Shown here piece after piece: positions 20,232-33,321 of a stretch of DNA of 64,000 nucleotides. Both the position numbers and the translations under genes were made by a program. Source of the stretch: Thermoleophilia bacterium (lineage in GTDB: Bacteria; Actinomycetota; Thermoleophilia; BMS3ABIN01); the NCBI GenBank assembly GCA_020053595.1, contig JAGVMV010000006.1, forward strand, positions 49,325 to 113,324, given 5' to 3'. The notes below the pieces were generated by a model, which worked only from the letters and a program-made list of their open reading frames with translations, did no database searches and was not told where the DNA came from. Each line of letters opens with the position of its first letter. Position 1 is the first letter of the stretch.

Positions 20232-20633
20232 ATGTGTGAGTCTCCAAAAAACAGAGCGATGGAAATACGGTCAAAAATCTGGATTGAAATCGATGGCAAG
20301 TGTGTGTTCAGCAAGGGGCGGGTAATCCTGCTCGAGGCCATCGAGCGGTATGGCTCCATAAACCGGGCCGCCGCCGAAACCGGTATTTCCTACCGGCGCG
20401 CGTGGGGGTACATCAAAGCCATGGAGAAAAGGCTGGGAATGGATCTGGTGGAGACGAAAACGGGAGGAGCTGGAGGGGGAGGCGCGACGCTCACTGACGA
20501 AGCGCGCCGCTTTCTGCTTGATTATGAGAGTCTGGAATCCGGCATCAACGAGCTTGTGGATAAGCGTTTCGGTGACATCTTCAAGGCTCAAAAAACCGCT
20601 AAAGTCGGGCGGCGTTATGCAAATTTGTCATAA
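20232..20633 (+). CDS. ModE N-terminal domain-like winged-helix regulator (no TOBE domains)
   Basis: ISYRRAWGYI...TGGAGGGGATLT matches the ModE HTH signature TGGKGGGGAxLT. Confidence 0.7.
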   Translation: MCESPKNRAMEIRSKIWIEIDGKCVFSKGRVILLEAIERYGSINRAAAETGISYRRAWGYIKAMEKRLGMDLVETKTGGAGGGGATLTDEARRFLLDYESLESGINELVDKRFGDIFKAQKTAKVGRRYANLS

Positions 20634-20662
20634 CCGACACAGTTTGATATCTGGAGGAAGTC

Positions 20663-21712
20663 ATGTGTGAAGTAGGCCAGGAAATAATATCTGTGAGGGA
20701 AGCCGTGGGCACTGTGTTGAGCCACGATATAACCGAGGTGAACCCGGCGAACGGCTTCAAAGGGGCACGGTTCCACCGGGGGCACGTTATCACGGAAGAG
20801 GACGTGGAGAAGCTTCTCGATCTGGGCAAGGAGCATCTGTATATCCTCGAAATTCGCGAAGATCAGATGCATGAAAACGACGCTGCGCAGATGATGGCGA
20901 CGGCGATAGCTGGTGAGAATGCGGTGTTCATACCGGAGCCTTCCGAGGGGAAAATAAATATCAGGGCCGCGGTGGATGGACTACTCAAGGTGGACGTCGC
21001 AGCGTTGGAAAGTTTTAACGGCGTCGGCGCGGTGATGTGCGCGACCCGTCACAGCAATACCGTTGTGAAGCAGGGTGATGTCATAGCAGGAACGCGCGCC
21101 ATTCCCCTCGTGGTTGATGAGAAGCCGGTGCGCGATGCAGTCGCGATCGCCGCCGGGGCGGGAGGCATTGTATCTGTCCTGCCGTTAAAGCAGGCCCGGG
21201 TGGCACTCGTAATCACGGGCAACGAAGTATACAAGGGTCGTATCAAGGACGCTTTTGAGCCGGTGATCAGGAAGAAGGTCGAGGATCTCGGCTCTACAGT
21301 CGTGGAGGTCGTTAAATGCCCGGACAATGTGGGAGTGATCAGGGCAGCTCTGGAGCAGGTGAAGAGCAATCAGGCCGATCTTGTCGTCATGACGGGTGGG
21401 ATGTCGGTCGATCCCGACGACGTTACTCCGCTGGCGGCGGGCGCGGCGGGCGCGGAGATTACCGCTTATGGTTCAGCGGTGCTTCCCGGGACGATGTTCA
21501 TGGTCGGCTACTTCAAGAATGGCACACCAGTGCTGGGCGTGCCCGCCTGCGGGATTCATCACCCGCGCACAATATTCGATCTCGTGCTACCCCGGGTGCT
21601 CGCAGGGGAAACAATCACTGACAAGGACATAGCCCGGCTCGGCCACGGTGGCATGTGTCTCGATTGCCCTGAGTGCAGATTTCCTGTTTGTCCATTCGGT
21701 AAGGGCTCATGA
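20663..21712 (+). CDS. MoeA-like molybdopterin metal-insertion protein (MoCF_biosynth domain), no MoeA C-terminal domain, Cys-rich tail
   Basis: VALVITGNEV, GGMSVDPDD and PGTMFMVG resemble the MoeA VALFSTGDEL, GGVSVGEAD and PGKPFAFG motifs. C-terminal CLDCPECRFPVCPFGK. This is paralog A; paralog B is at 31656. Confidence 0.65.
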   Translation: MCEVGQEIISVREAVGTVLSHDITEVNPANGFKGARFHRGHVITEEDVEKLLDLGKEHLYILEIREDQMHENDAAQMMATAIAGENAVFIPEPSEGKINIRAAVDGLLKVDVAALESFNGVGAVMCATRHSNTVVKQGDVIAGTRAIPLVVDEKPVRDAVAIAAGAGGIVSVLPLKQARVALVITGNEVYKGRIKDAFEPVIRKKVEDLGSTVVEVVKCPDNVGVIRAALEQVKSNQADLVVMTGGMSVDPDDVTPLAAGAAGAEITAYGSAVLPGTMFMVGYFKNGTPVLGVPACGIHHPRTIFDLVLPRVLAGETITDKDIARLGHGGMCLDCPECRFPVCPFGKGS

Positions 21713-21721
21713 AGAGTTGTC

Positions 21722-31663: not shown

Positions 31664-32702
31664 ACCCGACCAGATAACTGTTCCCGTCCAGGAGGCCGTC
31701 GGCCTGGTGCTCAGCCACGACATCACCGAGGTCAACGCCCGAACTCACTACAAAGGCAGCGCCTTTCGCCGCGGCCATGTCATCAGCGAAGAAGATATAC
31801 CCAAGCTTCTGGACCTGGGCAAAGAGAACCTGTATGTGCTGGAGATGACCGAAGACCAGATGCATGAGGATGACGCCGTGCTGATGCTTGCCAAAGCGCT
31901 GGCGGGAGAAAACGCCCAGTTCATGCCTGAACCGCGTGAGGGACGGATCAACATCATCGCCGGCGTGACAGGCCTGCTCAAGGTTGACGTCGAGGCGCTT
32001 ATGCGGTTCAACCTGGTGGGCGAGGTCATGTGCGCCAGCCGCCATACGAATACGATCGTTCAGGCCGGAGACATCGTCGCCGGAACCCGGGCGATTCCGC
32101 TGGTTGTCGAAAGGGAACTGGTCCGGCAGGCGGTCGCCGGGGCCGAGGCGGCCGGGGGGATAATCTCCGTGCGGCCACTCAAGGCCGCCCGGACCGCTAT
32201 CATCATCACCGGCAACGAAGTCTATACCGGCCGCATCGATGACGCTTTCGAACCGATCATCCGGGAAAAAGTGGAAACCCTGGGCTCATCCATCGTCAGC
32301 GTGACCAAGTGCCCGGATAACCTGCTGGCCATCAGGCAGGCACTGCTGGAGGCACGCGAGGCGGCCGACCTGATCGTCATGACCGGCGGCATGTCCGTCG
32401 ACCCCGATGACCTGACGCCGCTGGCGGCGCGCGAGGCCGGCGCCGACATCTCGGCCTACGGCTCAGCCGTTCTTCCGGGAGCCATGTTCATGGTCAGCTA
32501 TTTTGAGGATGGTACACCGGTGCTGGGGGTTCCCGCCTGTGGCATCCACCATCCCCGAACCATCTTCGATCTCATCCTGCCCCGGGTGCTGGCCGGAGAA
32601 AAAATCAGCGGCGCCGATATCGCCCGGCTGGGCCACGGCGGCCTCTGCCTGGATTGCCCGGAGTGCGACTTCCCGGTCTGCCCCTTCGGCAAGTCCAGCT
32701 GA
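31656..32702 (+). CDS. MoeA-like molybdopterin metal-insertion protein, paralog B (Cys-rich tail CLDCPECDFPVCPFGK)
   Basis: Collinear with, and about 65-70% identical to, the protein encoded at 20663..21712. Starts with the same MCE. Overlaps the FDH stop by a few nt. Confidence 0.65.
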   Translation: MCEPDQITVPVQEAVGLVLSHDITEVNARTHYKGSAFRRGHVISEEDIPKLLDLGKENLYVLEMTEDQMHEDDAVLMLAKALAGENAQFMPEPREGRINIIAGVTGLLKVDVEALMRFNLVGEVMCASRHTNTIVQAGDIVAGTRAIPLVVERELVRQAVAGAEAAGGIISVRPLKAARTAIIITGNEVYTGRIDDAFEPIIREKVETLGSSIVSVTKCPDNLLAIRQALLEAREAADLIVMTGGMSVDPDDLTPLAAREAGADISAYGSAVLPGAMFMVSYFEDGTPVLGVPACGIHHPRTIFDLILPRVLAGEKISGADIARLGHGGLCLDCPECDFPVCPFGKSS

Positions 32703-32733
32703 ACCGGCTGATGATCGCGGGAGGCTCATCATA

Positions 32734-33321
32734 ATGAAATCCCTCGAAGAGCACCTGGCTGAAACCGCCGCTTTCCACGGCGGCGATTGCCCCGGCCAGA
32801 CCCTGGGAGTGCGCCTGGCCCGTGCCGGCCTCGAACAGATCGGTGTCGACGAGCCCCTCTCCGACCGCTGGCGCAAGAACATCATGGTCTACGTCGAGAT
32901 CGACCGCTGCGCCGCCGACGCCCTGATGATCGTCACCGGCTGCCGTGTCGGCAAACGGACGCTGAAGATCGTCGACTACGGCATCATGGCAGCCACCTTC
33001 ATCAACCTGAAGACCGGCAAGGCAGTGCGGGTCATCGCCAGGGAAGAGGCCCGGTCGCTGGCGCCGAAGTACGCGCCGGAAGAAACCAGCAAATACGAGC
33101 AGCAACGCCAGGCCTACCGGGTGATGCCCGACGAGGAGCTGCTGAGCTTCGAGGAAGTGAAAGTGACGATCCCGCCGGAAGACCTGCCGGGCAGCCCGAT
33201 CTCCCGGGTGGCCTGCGAGCGCTGTGGTGACCATGTGGTCGATATGCGCGAGGTGAAGATCGACGGTGTCACACTCTGTCGCCCCTGTGCCCGGGGTGGG
33301 TATTTTACCCGCGGGAAATAG
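32734..33321 (+). CDS. FmdE/FwdE-family protein with C-terminal zinc ribbon, paralog B
   Basis: MKSLEEHLAETAAFHGGDCPGQTLGVRLA is near-identical to the N-terminus of the 21722 product. GGGAGG RBS at 10-nt spacing. The track ORF 32503.. includes a spurious 5' extension. Confidence 0.75.
   Translation: MKSLEEHLAETAAFHGGDCPGQTLGVRLARAGLEQIGVDEPLSDRWRKNIMVYVEIDRCAADALMIVTGCRVGKRTLKIVDYGIMAATFINLKTGKAVRVIAREEARSLAPKYAPEETSKYEQQRQAYRVMPDEELLSFEEVKVTIPPEDLPGSPISRVACERCGDHVVDMREVKIDGVTLCRPCARGGYFTRGK

Follow-up and report, generated by a model that had tools for sequence, protein, structure and literature searches.

Two diverged MoeA-like/FmdE gene pairs as a candidate enzyme-specific module for molybdenum/tungsten cofactor maturation in a Thermoleophilia bacterium

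A 64,000-nucleotide stretch of DNA from a Thermoleophilia bacterium (hereafter, the window) carries two diverged copies of a gene pair, each encoding a shortened relative of MoeA (the family here called M349) and an FmdE-family protein. On balance, these pairs probably constitute an accessory module for late maturation of the Mo/W pterin cofactor, with the copies being specific for an enzyme or operon rather than for a metal. Maturation of Mo/W-bis-MGD enzymes (formate dehydrogenases [FDHs] and Psr/Phs-type reductases) is incompletely understood in anaerobes, and it is also a practical bottleneck for making CO2-reducing formate dehydrogenases in other hosts. The window represents a natural experiment, in which two diverged copies are associated with separate enzymes and answer to separate regulatory signals.

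The features of the region are collected in Table 1. Pair A is preceded, 29 nt upstream, by a ModE-N regulator gene that lacks the Mop/molbindin domain. FmdE_A starts 9 nt past the end of M349_A, and its stop overlaps the start of the MOT1 gene by 7 nt. Downstream, a ZTP riboswitch heads a transcription unit of FDH, M349_B and FmdE_B, in which the ATG of M349_B shares 8 nt with the end of the FDH gene, overlapping its stop codon; within this riboswitch-headed operon, translation of copy B is coupled to that of the FDH. The selenocysteine (Sec) codon of the FDH is an in-frame TGA lying inside a SECIS_3 match. Pair A presumably serves a Tat-exported PhsA/DmsA-like reductase, which is encoded together with its 4Fe-4S subunit and a TorD/DmsD-like chaperone. 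The inventory of genes between the pairs given in the preliminary description was largely correct (MOT1, MobA/MobB, MoaA, MoaC, MOSC, MogA/MoaB-type protein and FDH); its modE-like gene, however, lies just upstream of pair A.

Table 1. Features of the cofactor gene region, in window positions
Feature	Position	Strand	Model match or remark
Tat-exported PhsA/DmsA-like molybdopterin oxidoreductase	15945-18557	+	whole Tat enzyme group 15945-19781
4Fe-4S subunit of Tat reductase	18576-19127	+	
TorD/DmsD-like chaperone	19137-19781	+	
ModE N-terminal-type HTH regulator (ModE-N), 133 aa	20232-20633	+	Pfam HTH_1; TIGR00637 ModE_repress 91.8 bits
M349_A, predicted MoeA-derived molybdopterin-binding protein, 349 aa	20663-21712	+	C-terminal Cys4 motif 21656-21703
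FmdE_A, FmdE family, 206 aa	21722-22342	+	
MOT1-type MFS molybdate transporter	22336-23577	+	Pfam PF16983, 142.8 bits
MobA/MobB fusion (MGD synthesis)	23612-24808	+	NF011056 311 bits; Pfam NTP_transf_3 + MobB
MoaA (GTP 3',8-cyclase)	24789-25802	+	TIGR02666 359 bits, above cutoff; start codon at 24789 likely
MoaC	25819-26343	+	TIGR00581 215 bits
MOSC-domain protein	26340-26786	+	Pfam MOSC; hit to the MOSC portion of NF011069
MogA/MoaB-type MPT adenylyltransferase	26783-27274	+	PF00994 113.7 bits; TIGR00177 122 bits, above cutoff
ZMP/ZTP riboswitch aptamer	27359-27457	+	RF01750 53 bits (gathering score 39)
Sec formate dehydrogenase fused to 2Fe-2S, GltD-like NAD(P)H flavoprotein and 4Fe-4S modules	27536-31663	+	Sec codon 30032-30034; SECIS-like element 30029-30087
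M349_B, paralogue of M349_A, 348 aa	31656-32702	+	C-terminal Cys4 motif 32646-32693
FmdE_B, paralogue of FmdE_A, 195 aa	32734-33321	+	

Six-frame phmmer searches of the window with E. coli queries confirmed the reported absence of canonical moeA, moaD, moaE, modA and modB, and they likewise found no canonical MoeB or FdhD. No TupA-/WtpA-type tungstate transporter gene was seen in the window either, the phmmer queries being MoeA, MoeB, MoaD, MoaE, FdhD, ModA and ModB. Since the indispensable moaD, moaE and moeB are missing too, the window cluster is incomplete, and the missing moeA says little about the genome.

The two pairs are collinear paralogues on the same strand, located where they were first described, and they share the reported N-termini (MCE... 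in the large proteins and MK(T/S)LEEHLAETAAFHG... in the small ones) and, in both large proteins, the C-terminal CLDCPEC(R/D)FPVCPFGK motif. The early identity estimate of 65-70% captured the close paralogy and ran slightly low, as BLASTP gave 71% for M349_A and M349_B (249/349, E = 0, with a single 1-residue gap) and 72% for FmdE_A and FmdE_B (139/192, E = 8e-109), values that by alignment place the similarity far beyond chance. In the tree, clade A is sister to clade B. Orthologues in separate relatives are 80-82% identical for A and 80-83% for B, closer than A is to B, indicating that the duplication predates those lineages. Judged from their sequences, the pairs are ancient duplicates of one two-gene module.

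Several lines of evidence tie M349 to MoeA. In agreement with the preliminary description of a MoeA-like domain without the MoeA C-terminal domain, PF00994 is the sole Pfam domain of the large proteins (73.8 and 79.2 bits), spanning residues 181-296 after a MoeA-like N-terminal half of 180 residues, and PF03454 (MoeA_C) does not match; the protein ends approximately 35 residues past domain III. As a control, a canonical MoeA fragment from another locus (L020) does match MoeA_C. In phmmer comparison with the PDB, M349 matches residues 130-322 of E. coli MoeA, and hhalign gives a probability of 98.8%. All of the top 50 Foldseek matches in the PDB are MoeA, GephE or Cnx1E, and MoeA is the best structural match both of the whole protein and of its N-terminal half alone. 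For residues 1-175 taken alone, the hhalign probability is 2%, no Pfam match to MoeA_N (PF03453) was found in M349 at E <= 0.01, and in the predicted model, where residues ~68-130 have alpha/beta secondary structure, no more than roughly half of this N-terminal portion can be superposed on MoeA. The architecture of M349_A can thus be described as a partial domain I, a novel insert, domain III and a Cys4 tail, with domain IV absent.

At the residue level, E188, D221, D253 and P294 of M349 are invariant and align with MoeA E188, D228, D259 and P298. In E. coli MoeA, mutagenesis has assigned K275, K279, R350, S371 and D59 to the oxyanion (molybdate) site. The positions of K275, K279 and D59 are occupied in the M349 alignment by G270, L274 and R/K39, respectively, and R350 and S371 were lost along with domain IV, so that M349 does not retain the chemistry of a canonical insertase. 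Invariant residues peculiar to the family are H21, D22, T24, K33, H41, H70, E71 and E95. The Cys4 tail occurs in about half of the family, the other half being without it, and its low pLDDT is consistent with a flexible or metal-dependent element in the model. M349 scores 31 and 34.5 bits against the MoeA equivalog NF007960, below the cutoff of 440 bits. An identity as MogA/MoaB (a single domain of about 160-190 aa passing TIGR00177) was rejected, because M349 reaches 59.7 bits against a cutoff of 85.35, while the separate MogA/MoaB-type gene of the cluster passes.

The partner proteins are clear members of the FmdE family, scoring 106.2 and 110.9 bits against a Pfam cutoff of 22.9 and matching PDB entries 2gvi and 3d00. 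Residues H15, C19 and C59, which correspond to His15, Cys19 and Cys55 of 2GLZ, are invariant across 159 sequences of the subfamily, as are C161, C164, C182 and C185 of a CxxC...CxxC (C4) zinc ribbon matched by the zf-dskA_traR model. Position 17, which is the fourth metal ligand (His17) in 2GLZ, is Ser in copy A and Gly in copy B, and it is variable across the 159 sequences (H in 66, G in 53, E in 26). The metal site of FmdE is solvent-exposed, only 13 of 208 family members are co-transcribed with catalytic subunits of formylmethanofuran dehydrogenase, and an architecture joining FmdE to PF00994 is already present in Pfam (PMC2954224). An orphan fwdE is also among the few acetogen-specific core genes besides those of the Wood-Ljungdahl pathway (PMC5039349). 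No fmd/fwd catalytic genes are found in the window cluster, where the neighbours of FmdE are M349, MOT1 and FDH.

M349 proteins form a large family, with 993 clusters at 50% identity. Among 80 species loci, an FmdE gene lies within 3 genes of M349 in 37 (directly upstream in 29-30), and FmdE is absent within 10 kb in the other 43. Neighbours of M349 at these loci include a Tat molybdoenzyme (20), MoaA (19), TorD (11), ModE-N (10), MobB (6) and XdhC (6). FmdE adjacency tracks operons for bis-MGD (DMSO-reductase-family) enzymes, as a Tat bis-MGD enzyme occurs in 15 of 37 FmdE-positive versus 1 of 43 FmdE-negative loci (p = 2.5e-5). In 6 of the 80 other species, a canonical MoeA is encoded at most 10 kb from M349; M349 is therefore not a general MoeA substitute and, at least at those loci, is an addition to MoeA rather than a replacement.

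Gene fusions strengthen the association. FmdE and M349 are joined in at least seven protein clusters, including fusions of FmdE, zinc finger and M349 (P0274, P0289, P0290, P0302, P0317 and P0381) and FmdE-HTH_1-M349 triple fusions (P0241, 686 aa; L031/P0413, 694 aa), in which a ModE-type HTH sits between FmdE and M349. M349 is further fused to MobB (P0250) and to MoaC (P0349). Cultured organisms with fusions include Desulforegula and Desulfovibrio. The HTH fusions permit a regulatory role, which was counted against the module reading, as were the 43 loci with no FmdE nearby, the tail-less half of the family, the replaced or lost MoeA site residues, the weak profile match of the N-terminal half to MoeA, and the canonical MoeA genes close to M349.

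Gene neighbourhoods in relatives indicate which copy goes with which enzyme. Copy A accompanies MOT1, the ModE-N regulator and the PhsA/DmsA-like reductase exported by Tat; the Tat reductase group precedes A-type pairs, with the same synteny, in L001, L003 and L091. Of these, L001 and L091 are A-only loci with the Tat reductase, while L090 and L093 are B-only loci with FDH. The ZTP riboswitch upstream of FDH is kept in five relatives (L003, L004, L090, L093 and L098). Each copy follows one enzyme, which favours cofactor maturation specific to an enzyme or operon, in keeping with one of the two branches suggested in the preliminary description. The TorD-like chaperone already possessed by the Tat enzyme was counted against this reading.

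The other suggested branch, namely that one pair handles Mo and the other W (e.g., with W going to the Sec-FDH and Mo to the Tat reductase), was not supported and is fairly unlikely. In anaerobes, FDHs that contain Sec often use tungsten, and the long-standing divergence of the pairs would also suit such a division. There is precedent for specialised MoeA paralogues as well, with MoeA1 of M. extorquens being W-selective (PMC13197769) and a proposal that the archaeal MoeA1 and MoeA2 are the W form and the Mo form, respectively (PMC11733289). However, all invariant residues are common to M349_A and M349_B, and no more than 8 positions discriminate the clades, mostly by conservative changes (E49P, N72D, I82L, K97R, A228Q, V254L, A261E and G348S), and a tungstate transporter gene of the type mentioned above was not seen in the window. 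Furthermore, the FDH-linked pair in L098 and L099 directly follows ModABC, whose ModA passes its equivalog cutoff, and in B-only loci a full-length Moco-type riboswitch lies upstream of the MobAB to MogA genes, not of the pair. Duplication need not mean metal specificity, as two MoeA paralogues of D. vulgaris are both required for one W enzyme (PMC10102598).

Alternatively, M349, through cofactor or pterin binding, and FmdE, through its zinc ribbon, could act as sensory partners of the Mop-less ModE-N, controlling transcription of Mo genes without any cofactor chemistry. The triple fusions, the lack of a molybdate-binding Mop domain in ModE-N, the position of ModE-N directly upstream of M349 in 10/80 species loci plus the window and L098, and the DNA-binding role suggested for the FmdE zinc finger (PMC2954224, PMC5039349) all point in this direction, but pair B lacks an HTH neighbour and is coupled to FDH, some M349 proteins are fused to enzymes (MobB and MoaC), the whole family strictly keeps the catalytic acidic residues of the MogA/MoeA type, and HTH fusions are rare (1 of 150 best representatives); a purely regulatory function is thus unlikely. 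Quite unlikely, too, is a sulfuration or Fe-S finishing step like that of FdhD or XdhC, in which the Cys tail would carry sulfur or Fe-S and the module would install a sulfido ligand or reduce the metal before insertion. Such a role would fit the window's lack of fdhD, the location of pair B at the usual position of FDH accessory genes, the low-confidence tail, the MOSC gene in the same cluster, and the occurrence of M349 alongside XdhC and xanthine-dehydrogenase-family enzymes, which need sulfuration. The tail is missing, however, from half of the family (several FmdE fusions included), similarity of M349 to FdhD was not found, and the window cluster encodes no cysteine desulfurase. Finally, it is very unlikely that M349 is a nucleotide pyrophosphatase of the CinA/COG1058 type, or some generic PF00994 protein, and a neighbour by chance. 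When assignment to CinA, raised in the preliminary description, was checked, NCBIfam CinA models did match M349 (E 5e-8 to 7e-11), but solely through PF00994 in the shared domain III, leaving the MoeA kinship standing; the N-terminal half is independently best matched by MoeA, and the neighbourhood is overwhelmingly Moco-related, with fusions to FmdE, MobB and MoaC. CinA identity was accordingly rejected, PF00994 not being N-terminal in M349 and the context being Moco rather than NAD recycling or competence.

Under the accessory-module reading, M349 would bind MPT-AMP or Mo/W-MPT through its retained pterin/nucleotide-binding domain III with the acidic residues, having lost both the canonical oxyanion site and domain IV and gained conserved His, Asp, Thr, Lys and Glu residues in the N-terminal half and, in roughly half of its members, a Cys4 motif for metal or Fe-S. 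FmdE, a dimeric protein with an exposed His/Cys metal site and zinc ribbon, may supply or handle metal or dock the client, with the unfused proteins presumably interacting physically. Together they would perform or assist metal loading, and the cofactor would then pass via MobA/MobB into bis-MGD enzymes. Copy A would be co-expressed with the ModE-N regulator, MOT1 and the Moco genes beside the Tat reductase, and copy B would be switched on together with the Sec-FDH by the ZTP (folate-stress) riboswitch. The metal-insertion modules of the preliminary description are putative ones, the MoeA oxyanion residues being replaced or absent and canonical MoeA lying near M349 at some loci. It is possible, and offered tentatively, that M349 and FmdE represent a new two-component Mo/W-pterin insertase or cofactor-delivery system, with the His/Cys site of FmdE, and sometimes the Cys4 tail, replacing MoeA domain IV.

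FmdE, long without an explained function, is conserved across methanogens, acetogens and numerous sulfate reducers. A widespread MoeA-derived partner provides a testable role for the family. This large and strongly conserved partner family adjoins FmdE in many phyla and is fused to it in several lineages, giving a hypothesis that can be addressed in cultured organisms. If the two-component interpretation is true, it would give a function to a family unexplained since the fmd operon descriptions of the 1990s, and it would explain the conservation of orphan fwdE in acetogens and other FDH-dependent anaerobes.

Compared with known systems, M349 resembles MoeA, gephyrin E and Cnx1E in its collinear N-terminal region, its PF00994 domain III with equivalents of E188, D228, D259 and P298, and its occupation of the place expected for moeA in Moco gene clusters. 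Unlike them, it lacks the MoeA_N Pfam signature, domain IV (MoeA_C) and the oxyanion residues K275, K279, R350 and S371, and it has extra invariant residues and, in half of the family, the Cys4 tail; it also coexists with canonical MoeA in some clusters. FmdE_A and FmdE_B share the alpha+beta core, metal-binding loop and C-terminal treble-clef zinc ribbon of FmdE/FwdE (PF02663; 2GLZ, 2GVI, 3D00), but they have no formylmethanofuran dehydrogenase neighbours, have M349 as their partner and FDH or Psr-type enzymes as their linked enzymes, and carry Ser or Gly in place of the fourth metal ligand, His17, of 2GLZ. Like MoeA1/MoeA2 of M. extorquens, D. vulgaris and Archaea, the pairs include two MoeA-type genes in one genome, with roles that are probably non-redundant or specialised; those MoeAs, however, are full-length, some being fused to PBP, whereas the M349 copies are truncated, each has its own FmdE, and they differ by operon and client, not by metal-site residues. 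Finally, copy B is comparable to FdhD, FdhE, TorD/DmsD/NarJ and XdhC in lying in or next to the client operon and sharing the regulation of the enzyme, not that of the cofactor pathway, and the pairs, like these proteins, are duplicated per enzyme. The pairs have no sequence or fold kinship to any of them, and a TorD-like chaperone is additionally present beside the Tat enzyme.

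Two collinear pairs of plus-strand genes, each encoding a MoeA-like protein of about 349 residues (M349) and a small FmdE-family partner (FmdE), are present in the window as pairs A and B, and the positions claimed for all four genes in the preliminary description were confirmed by ORF listing and translation. The paralogs are slightly closer than the 65-70% identity first estimated: M349_A and M349_B share 71% identity over their full length with one 1-residue gap, and FmdE_A and FmdE_B share 72% (E = 8e-109). Translation also bore out the common termini, namely the MCE start and CLDCPEC(R/D)FPVCPFGK end of both M349 proteins and the MK(T/S)LEEHLAETAAFHG start of both FmdE proteins. 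The sole Pfam domain of M349_A and M349_B is MoCF_biosynth (PF00994; residues ~181-296), while their partners comprise an FmdE domain and a C4 zinc finger. Together, M349 and FmdE most likely form an accessory module for late Mo/W-pterin cofactor maturation in bis-MGD enzymes.

Upstream of pair A lie genes for a multihaem cytochrome c, a Tat-type PhsA/DmsA-like molybdopterin oxidoreductase (the Tat reductase), a 4Fe-4S subunit, and a TorD/DmsD-like chaperone. The following block reads ModE-N (a ModE N-terminal-type HTH regulator without a Mop domain), M349_A, FmdE_A, MOT1, MobA/MobB, MoaA, MoaC, MOSC, and MogA/MoaB; after a 261-nt gap come the selenocysteine formate dehydrogenase gene (Sec-FDH), M349_B, and FmdE_B. 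The genes from MOT1 to the FDH do lie between the pairs, as originally described; the modE-like gene, also placed there, precedes pair A. With its fused architecture, the FDH may be a self-contained CO2 reductase linked to NAD(P)H, and a SECIS_3 match lying exactly over its in-frame TGA (43.7 bits versus a gathering score of 63; E = 3.5e-7) supports predicted selenocysteine read-through. A promoter and terminator scan was uninformative (nine promoter-like sites versus 7.9 expected). Between FmdE_B and ligA are a HigB-like toxin gene and a small ORF; the same interval holds a HigB/HTH antitoxin pair in the related locus L004 and an RHH/PIN pair instead in L090. Elsewhere in the window, and unrelated to the pairs, is a gene whose product has a baeRF10 domain (bacterial-archaeo-eukaryotic release-factor family 10).

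Coordinates of features in the window and in related loci
Feature	Locus	Position (nt)	Strand	Remarks
ModE-type HTH gene	Window	20232-20633		5' of pair A
M349_A	Window	20663-21712	+	349 aa; ORF listing and translation
FmdE_A	Window	21722-22342	+	206 aa; ORF listing and translation
ZMP/ZTP (pfl-motif) riboswitch	Window	27359-27457	+	Directly upstream of Sec-FDH
T-run	Window	~27477-27486
Sec-FDH	Window	27536-31663		Single polypeptide, ~1370 residues; order 2Fe-2S / GltD-like NAD(P)H flavoprotein / 4Fe-4S / FdhA
SECIS_3 match	Window	30029-30087	+
In-frame TGA of FDH	Window	30032-30034
M349_B	Window	31656-32702	+	348 aa; ORF listing and translation
FmdE_B	Window	32734-33321	+	195 aa; ORF listing and translation
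HigB-like toxin gene	Window	33387-33665
Small ORF	Window	33640-33960	+
baeRF10-domain gene	Window	54898-56085	-
ZTP riboswitch	L003	16687-16782
ZTP riboswitch	L004	5648-5743
ZTP riboswitch	L090	5654-5749
ZTP riboswitch	L093	5679-5772
ZTP riboswitch	L098	2572-2710
Moco riboswitch	L090	1775-1928		RF01055
Moco riboswitch	L093	1670-1804		RF01055
Gene for 1181-aa protein	L098/L099	1-2415	-
Third M349/FmdE clade (P0011)	L095	3604-8201

Six-frame phmmer searches of the window with E. coli queries detected no canonical MoeA, MoaD, or MoaE, in agreement with the initial reading, nor MoeB, FdhD, or ModAB; the MoeA query matched only the two M349 genes (E ~1e-11). The MPT-synthase genes, which are indispensable, are likewise lacking, so the pathway is incomplete within the window and the missing moeA cannot be taken to mean that the genome lacks one. 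Nor is M349 a general substitute for MoeA, as a canonical MoeA of ~400 aa is encoded within 10 kb of M349 in 6 of 80 species loci.

The M349 family is large and strongly conserved: its members fall into at least 8000 clusters at 90% identity and, at 50% identity (E <= 1e-30), into 993, and species-representative genomes of Desulfobacterota, Nitrospirota, Firmicutes, Spirochaetia, and Deferribacteres carry at least 598 loci. The only database name for M349 is "molybdopterin-binding protein", and no NCBIfam equivalog exceeded its own cutoff. Both halves of the protein appear to be MoeA-derived. Its first PDB sequence match is E. coli MoeA residues 130-322, and profile-profile comparison aligned M349 residues 5-312 with residues 26-316 of canonical MoeA (98.8% probability). 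All 50 of the best Foldseek matches to its AlphaFold model (pLDDT 87, pTM 0.82) were MoeA, gephyrin E, or Cnx1E; the TM-score was only ~0.33, indicating that the domain arrangement differs from that of MoeA. The N-terminal region superposes on MoeA over only about half of its extent, and M349 has no domain IV, which upholds the earlier view of a protein with MoeA-like motifs but without the MoeA C-terminal domain.

E. coli MoeA residues E188, D228, D259, and P298 are kept in M349 as E188, D221, D253, and P294; K275 and K279 are replaced by G270 and L274, D59 by R/K, and R350 and S371 are missing along with domain IV. A comparison of 91 near-full-length representatives of the family gave a universal core of H21, D22, T24, K33, H41, H70, E71, and E95 in the N-terminal part, together with T185, E188, D196, D221, S248, D250, D252, D253, P275, G276, and P294. 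Of these representatives, 45 have a C-terminal cysteine motif (the Cys4 tail) and 46 lack it; C296 tends to occur together with the tail. In our reading, pterin/nucleotide binding would be retained and the canonical oxyanion site lost, with the newly conserved N-terminal polar residues and the optional thiolate-rich tail perhaps sharing in its replacement.

Linkage and gene fusions tie M349 to its partner. We surveyed the 80 species loci with ORF calls and HMMs of our own, and 37 proved to have a member of the same FmdE subfamily on the same strand, no more than three genes from M349. It lies directly upstream in 29-30 loci and directly downstream in none; the window, where M349 comes before FmdE, thus has an order peculiar to its clade. 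Only one fusion (L031) was seen among these loci; many more, confirmed by Pfam, emerged from an exhaustive search of representatives, including fusions of FmdE, zinc finger, and M349 (P0274, P0289, P0290, P0302, P0317, and P0381). Fusions are carried by the cultured Desulforegula conservatrix and by a Desulfovibrio cluster of 83 members, and metagenomic data contain MobB-M349 (P0250; 486 aa) and M349-MoaC (P0349; 478 aa) proteins. FmdE-HTH_1-M349 triple fusions occur in Dissulfurispiraceae and Nitrospirota (P0241, 686 aa; L031/P0413, 694 aa), hinting that the three products may function as a single unit, perhaps a regulatory one. The FmdE + PF00994 architecture in Pfam was already noted, but not followed, in the FmdE structure paper (PMC2954224).

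Other frequent neighbors of M349 are MoaA (19/80 loci, mostly directly downstream), ModE-N (10/80, mostly directly upstream), TorD, NrfD, and MobB. A neighboring FmdE gene shows a strong association with DMSO-reductase-family operons: 15 of 37 FmdE-positive loci encode a Tat bis-MGD enzyme, versus 1 of 43 FmdE-negative loci (p = 2.5e-5). The M349 found near XdhC and xanthine-dehydrogenase-family genes is the form without FmdE. The partner subfamily is likewise strongly conserved and shows no variation at H15, C19, C59, or any of the four cysteines of the zinc ribbon. The solvent-exposed metal site of 2GLZ has four ligands; H15, C19, and C59 match three of these, and the position of the fourth is variable (Ser or Gly in the window). 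Mechanistically, the MogA/MoeA-type pocket of M349 would hold MPT-AMP or metal-MPT, and the FmdE dimer, with its open His/Cys site and zinc ribbon, may serve in metal handling or client docking, with the unfused proteins presumably interacting. The product would then pass via MobA/MobB to the apo-enzyme, and each copy would be dedicated to its own operon and enzyme.

Copies A and B form sister clades within one actinobacterial group of MAGs labelled "Thermoleophilia bacterium" by NCBI, and the closest relatives of each are 80-96% identical to it. Because the copies diverge more from one another (71% identity) than from orthologues in distinct relatives (80-83%), the duplication predates those lineages. 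Loci with copy A only (L001, L091) comprise cytochrome c, Tat reductase, FeS, TorD, ModE-N, M349, FmdE, MOT1, MobAB, MoaA, MoaC, MOSC, MogA, TatA, and TatC; those with copy B only (L090, L093) comprise MobAB, MoaA, MoaC, MOSC, MogA, FDH, M349, FmdE, and LigA. The arrangement shared by the window, L003, and L004 (10937-36261 in the window) looks like a composite of these, produced by fusion or differential loss. Finally, a third clade just outside A and B (in L095) is found with TorD, TatA, HTH, M349, FmdE, and MobAB, adjoining a divergent FeS and large-subunit pair; this lineage may have recruited the module for further enzymes.

Regulation also differs between the copies. The M349_B start and the FDH stop codon overlap by 8 nt. 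Each of the five FDH-containing relatives examined has, like the window, a ZTP riboswitch upstream of the FDH, which would place the FDH, a CO2/formate enzyme, and pair B under folate or one-carbon-stress control. The T-run downstream of the window's riboswitch could be its terminator platform. In the B-only loci, a separate, full-length Moco riboswitch (66-68 bits) precedes MobAB-MoaA-MoaC-MOSC-MogA; no Moco riboswitch was detected at the equivalent position or elsewhere in the window, even at E <= 1, and the window has ModE-N with pair A instead. The overlap, the ZTP riboswitch, and the separate Moco riboswitch together indicate that copy B is regulated with its enzyme rather than with the cofactor pool, which is the pattern of system-specific maturation factors. 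Copy A, next to the Tat reductase, is probably expressed with the ModE-N regulator, the MOT1 transporter, and the cofactor genes. L098/L099, a third relative at greater distance, contains ZTP riboswitch, FDH, ModE-N, ModABC, M349, and FmdE; divergent from this locus is a gene for an 1181-aa protein with molybdopterin-oxidoreductase and Aminotran_5 (cysteine-desulfurase-like) domains.

The duplicates had been proposed to be either metal- or enzyme-specific, and the A-only and B-only loci and operon coupling favor the latter. A split into Mo and W branches is the most credible of four rival explanations, yet it draws no support from transporter type, riboswitch type, or copy-specific residues: FDH-linked loci have a ModA-type transporter and a Moco-type riboswitch, and clade-specific differences between A and B are confined to eight positions, all outside the invariant set. 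Next in credibility, the module might act as a sensor for the Mop-less ModE-N regulator, as the rare FmdE-HTH-M349 fusions would suggest, but this is contradicted by pair B and by the fusions to MobB and MoaC. Less credible again is a step of sulfuration or Fe-S chemistry like that of FdhD or XdhC, performed through the cysteine tail of M349; half of the family has no such tail, which contradicts it. Least credible is a CinA-like function unrelated to Moco, named at the outset as a refuting case; both the Moco gene context and the N-terminal fold contradict it.

No functional study of, or assigned function for, the M349 family or the M349/FmdE pair was found in the literature searched. Specialized or non-redundant MoeA paralogues are known (PMC13197769, PMC10102598, PMC11733289), and an orphan fwdE is among the few acetogen-specific core genes (PMC5039349). 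Likewise, fwdE occurs without fwdABCD in actinobacterial Wood-Ljungdahl clades (PMC7325909), to which the source organism is probably close; the abbreviation list of that paper's pathway gene-neighborhood figure includes fdh, gltD, and ligA, which occur together in the window. Taken as a whole, the M349/FmdE module may not startle the specialist, but the long-open function of FmdE is now directly testable. The closest characterized proteins to M349 are MoeA, gephyrin E, and Cnx1E; it fails as a MoeA on domain IV, the oxyanion residues, and curated score cutoffs, and should thus be called "MoeA-derived" rather than "MoeA". For the partner, the closest characterized proteins are FmdE proteins with solved structures and unassigned function.
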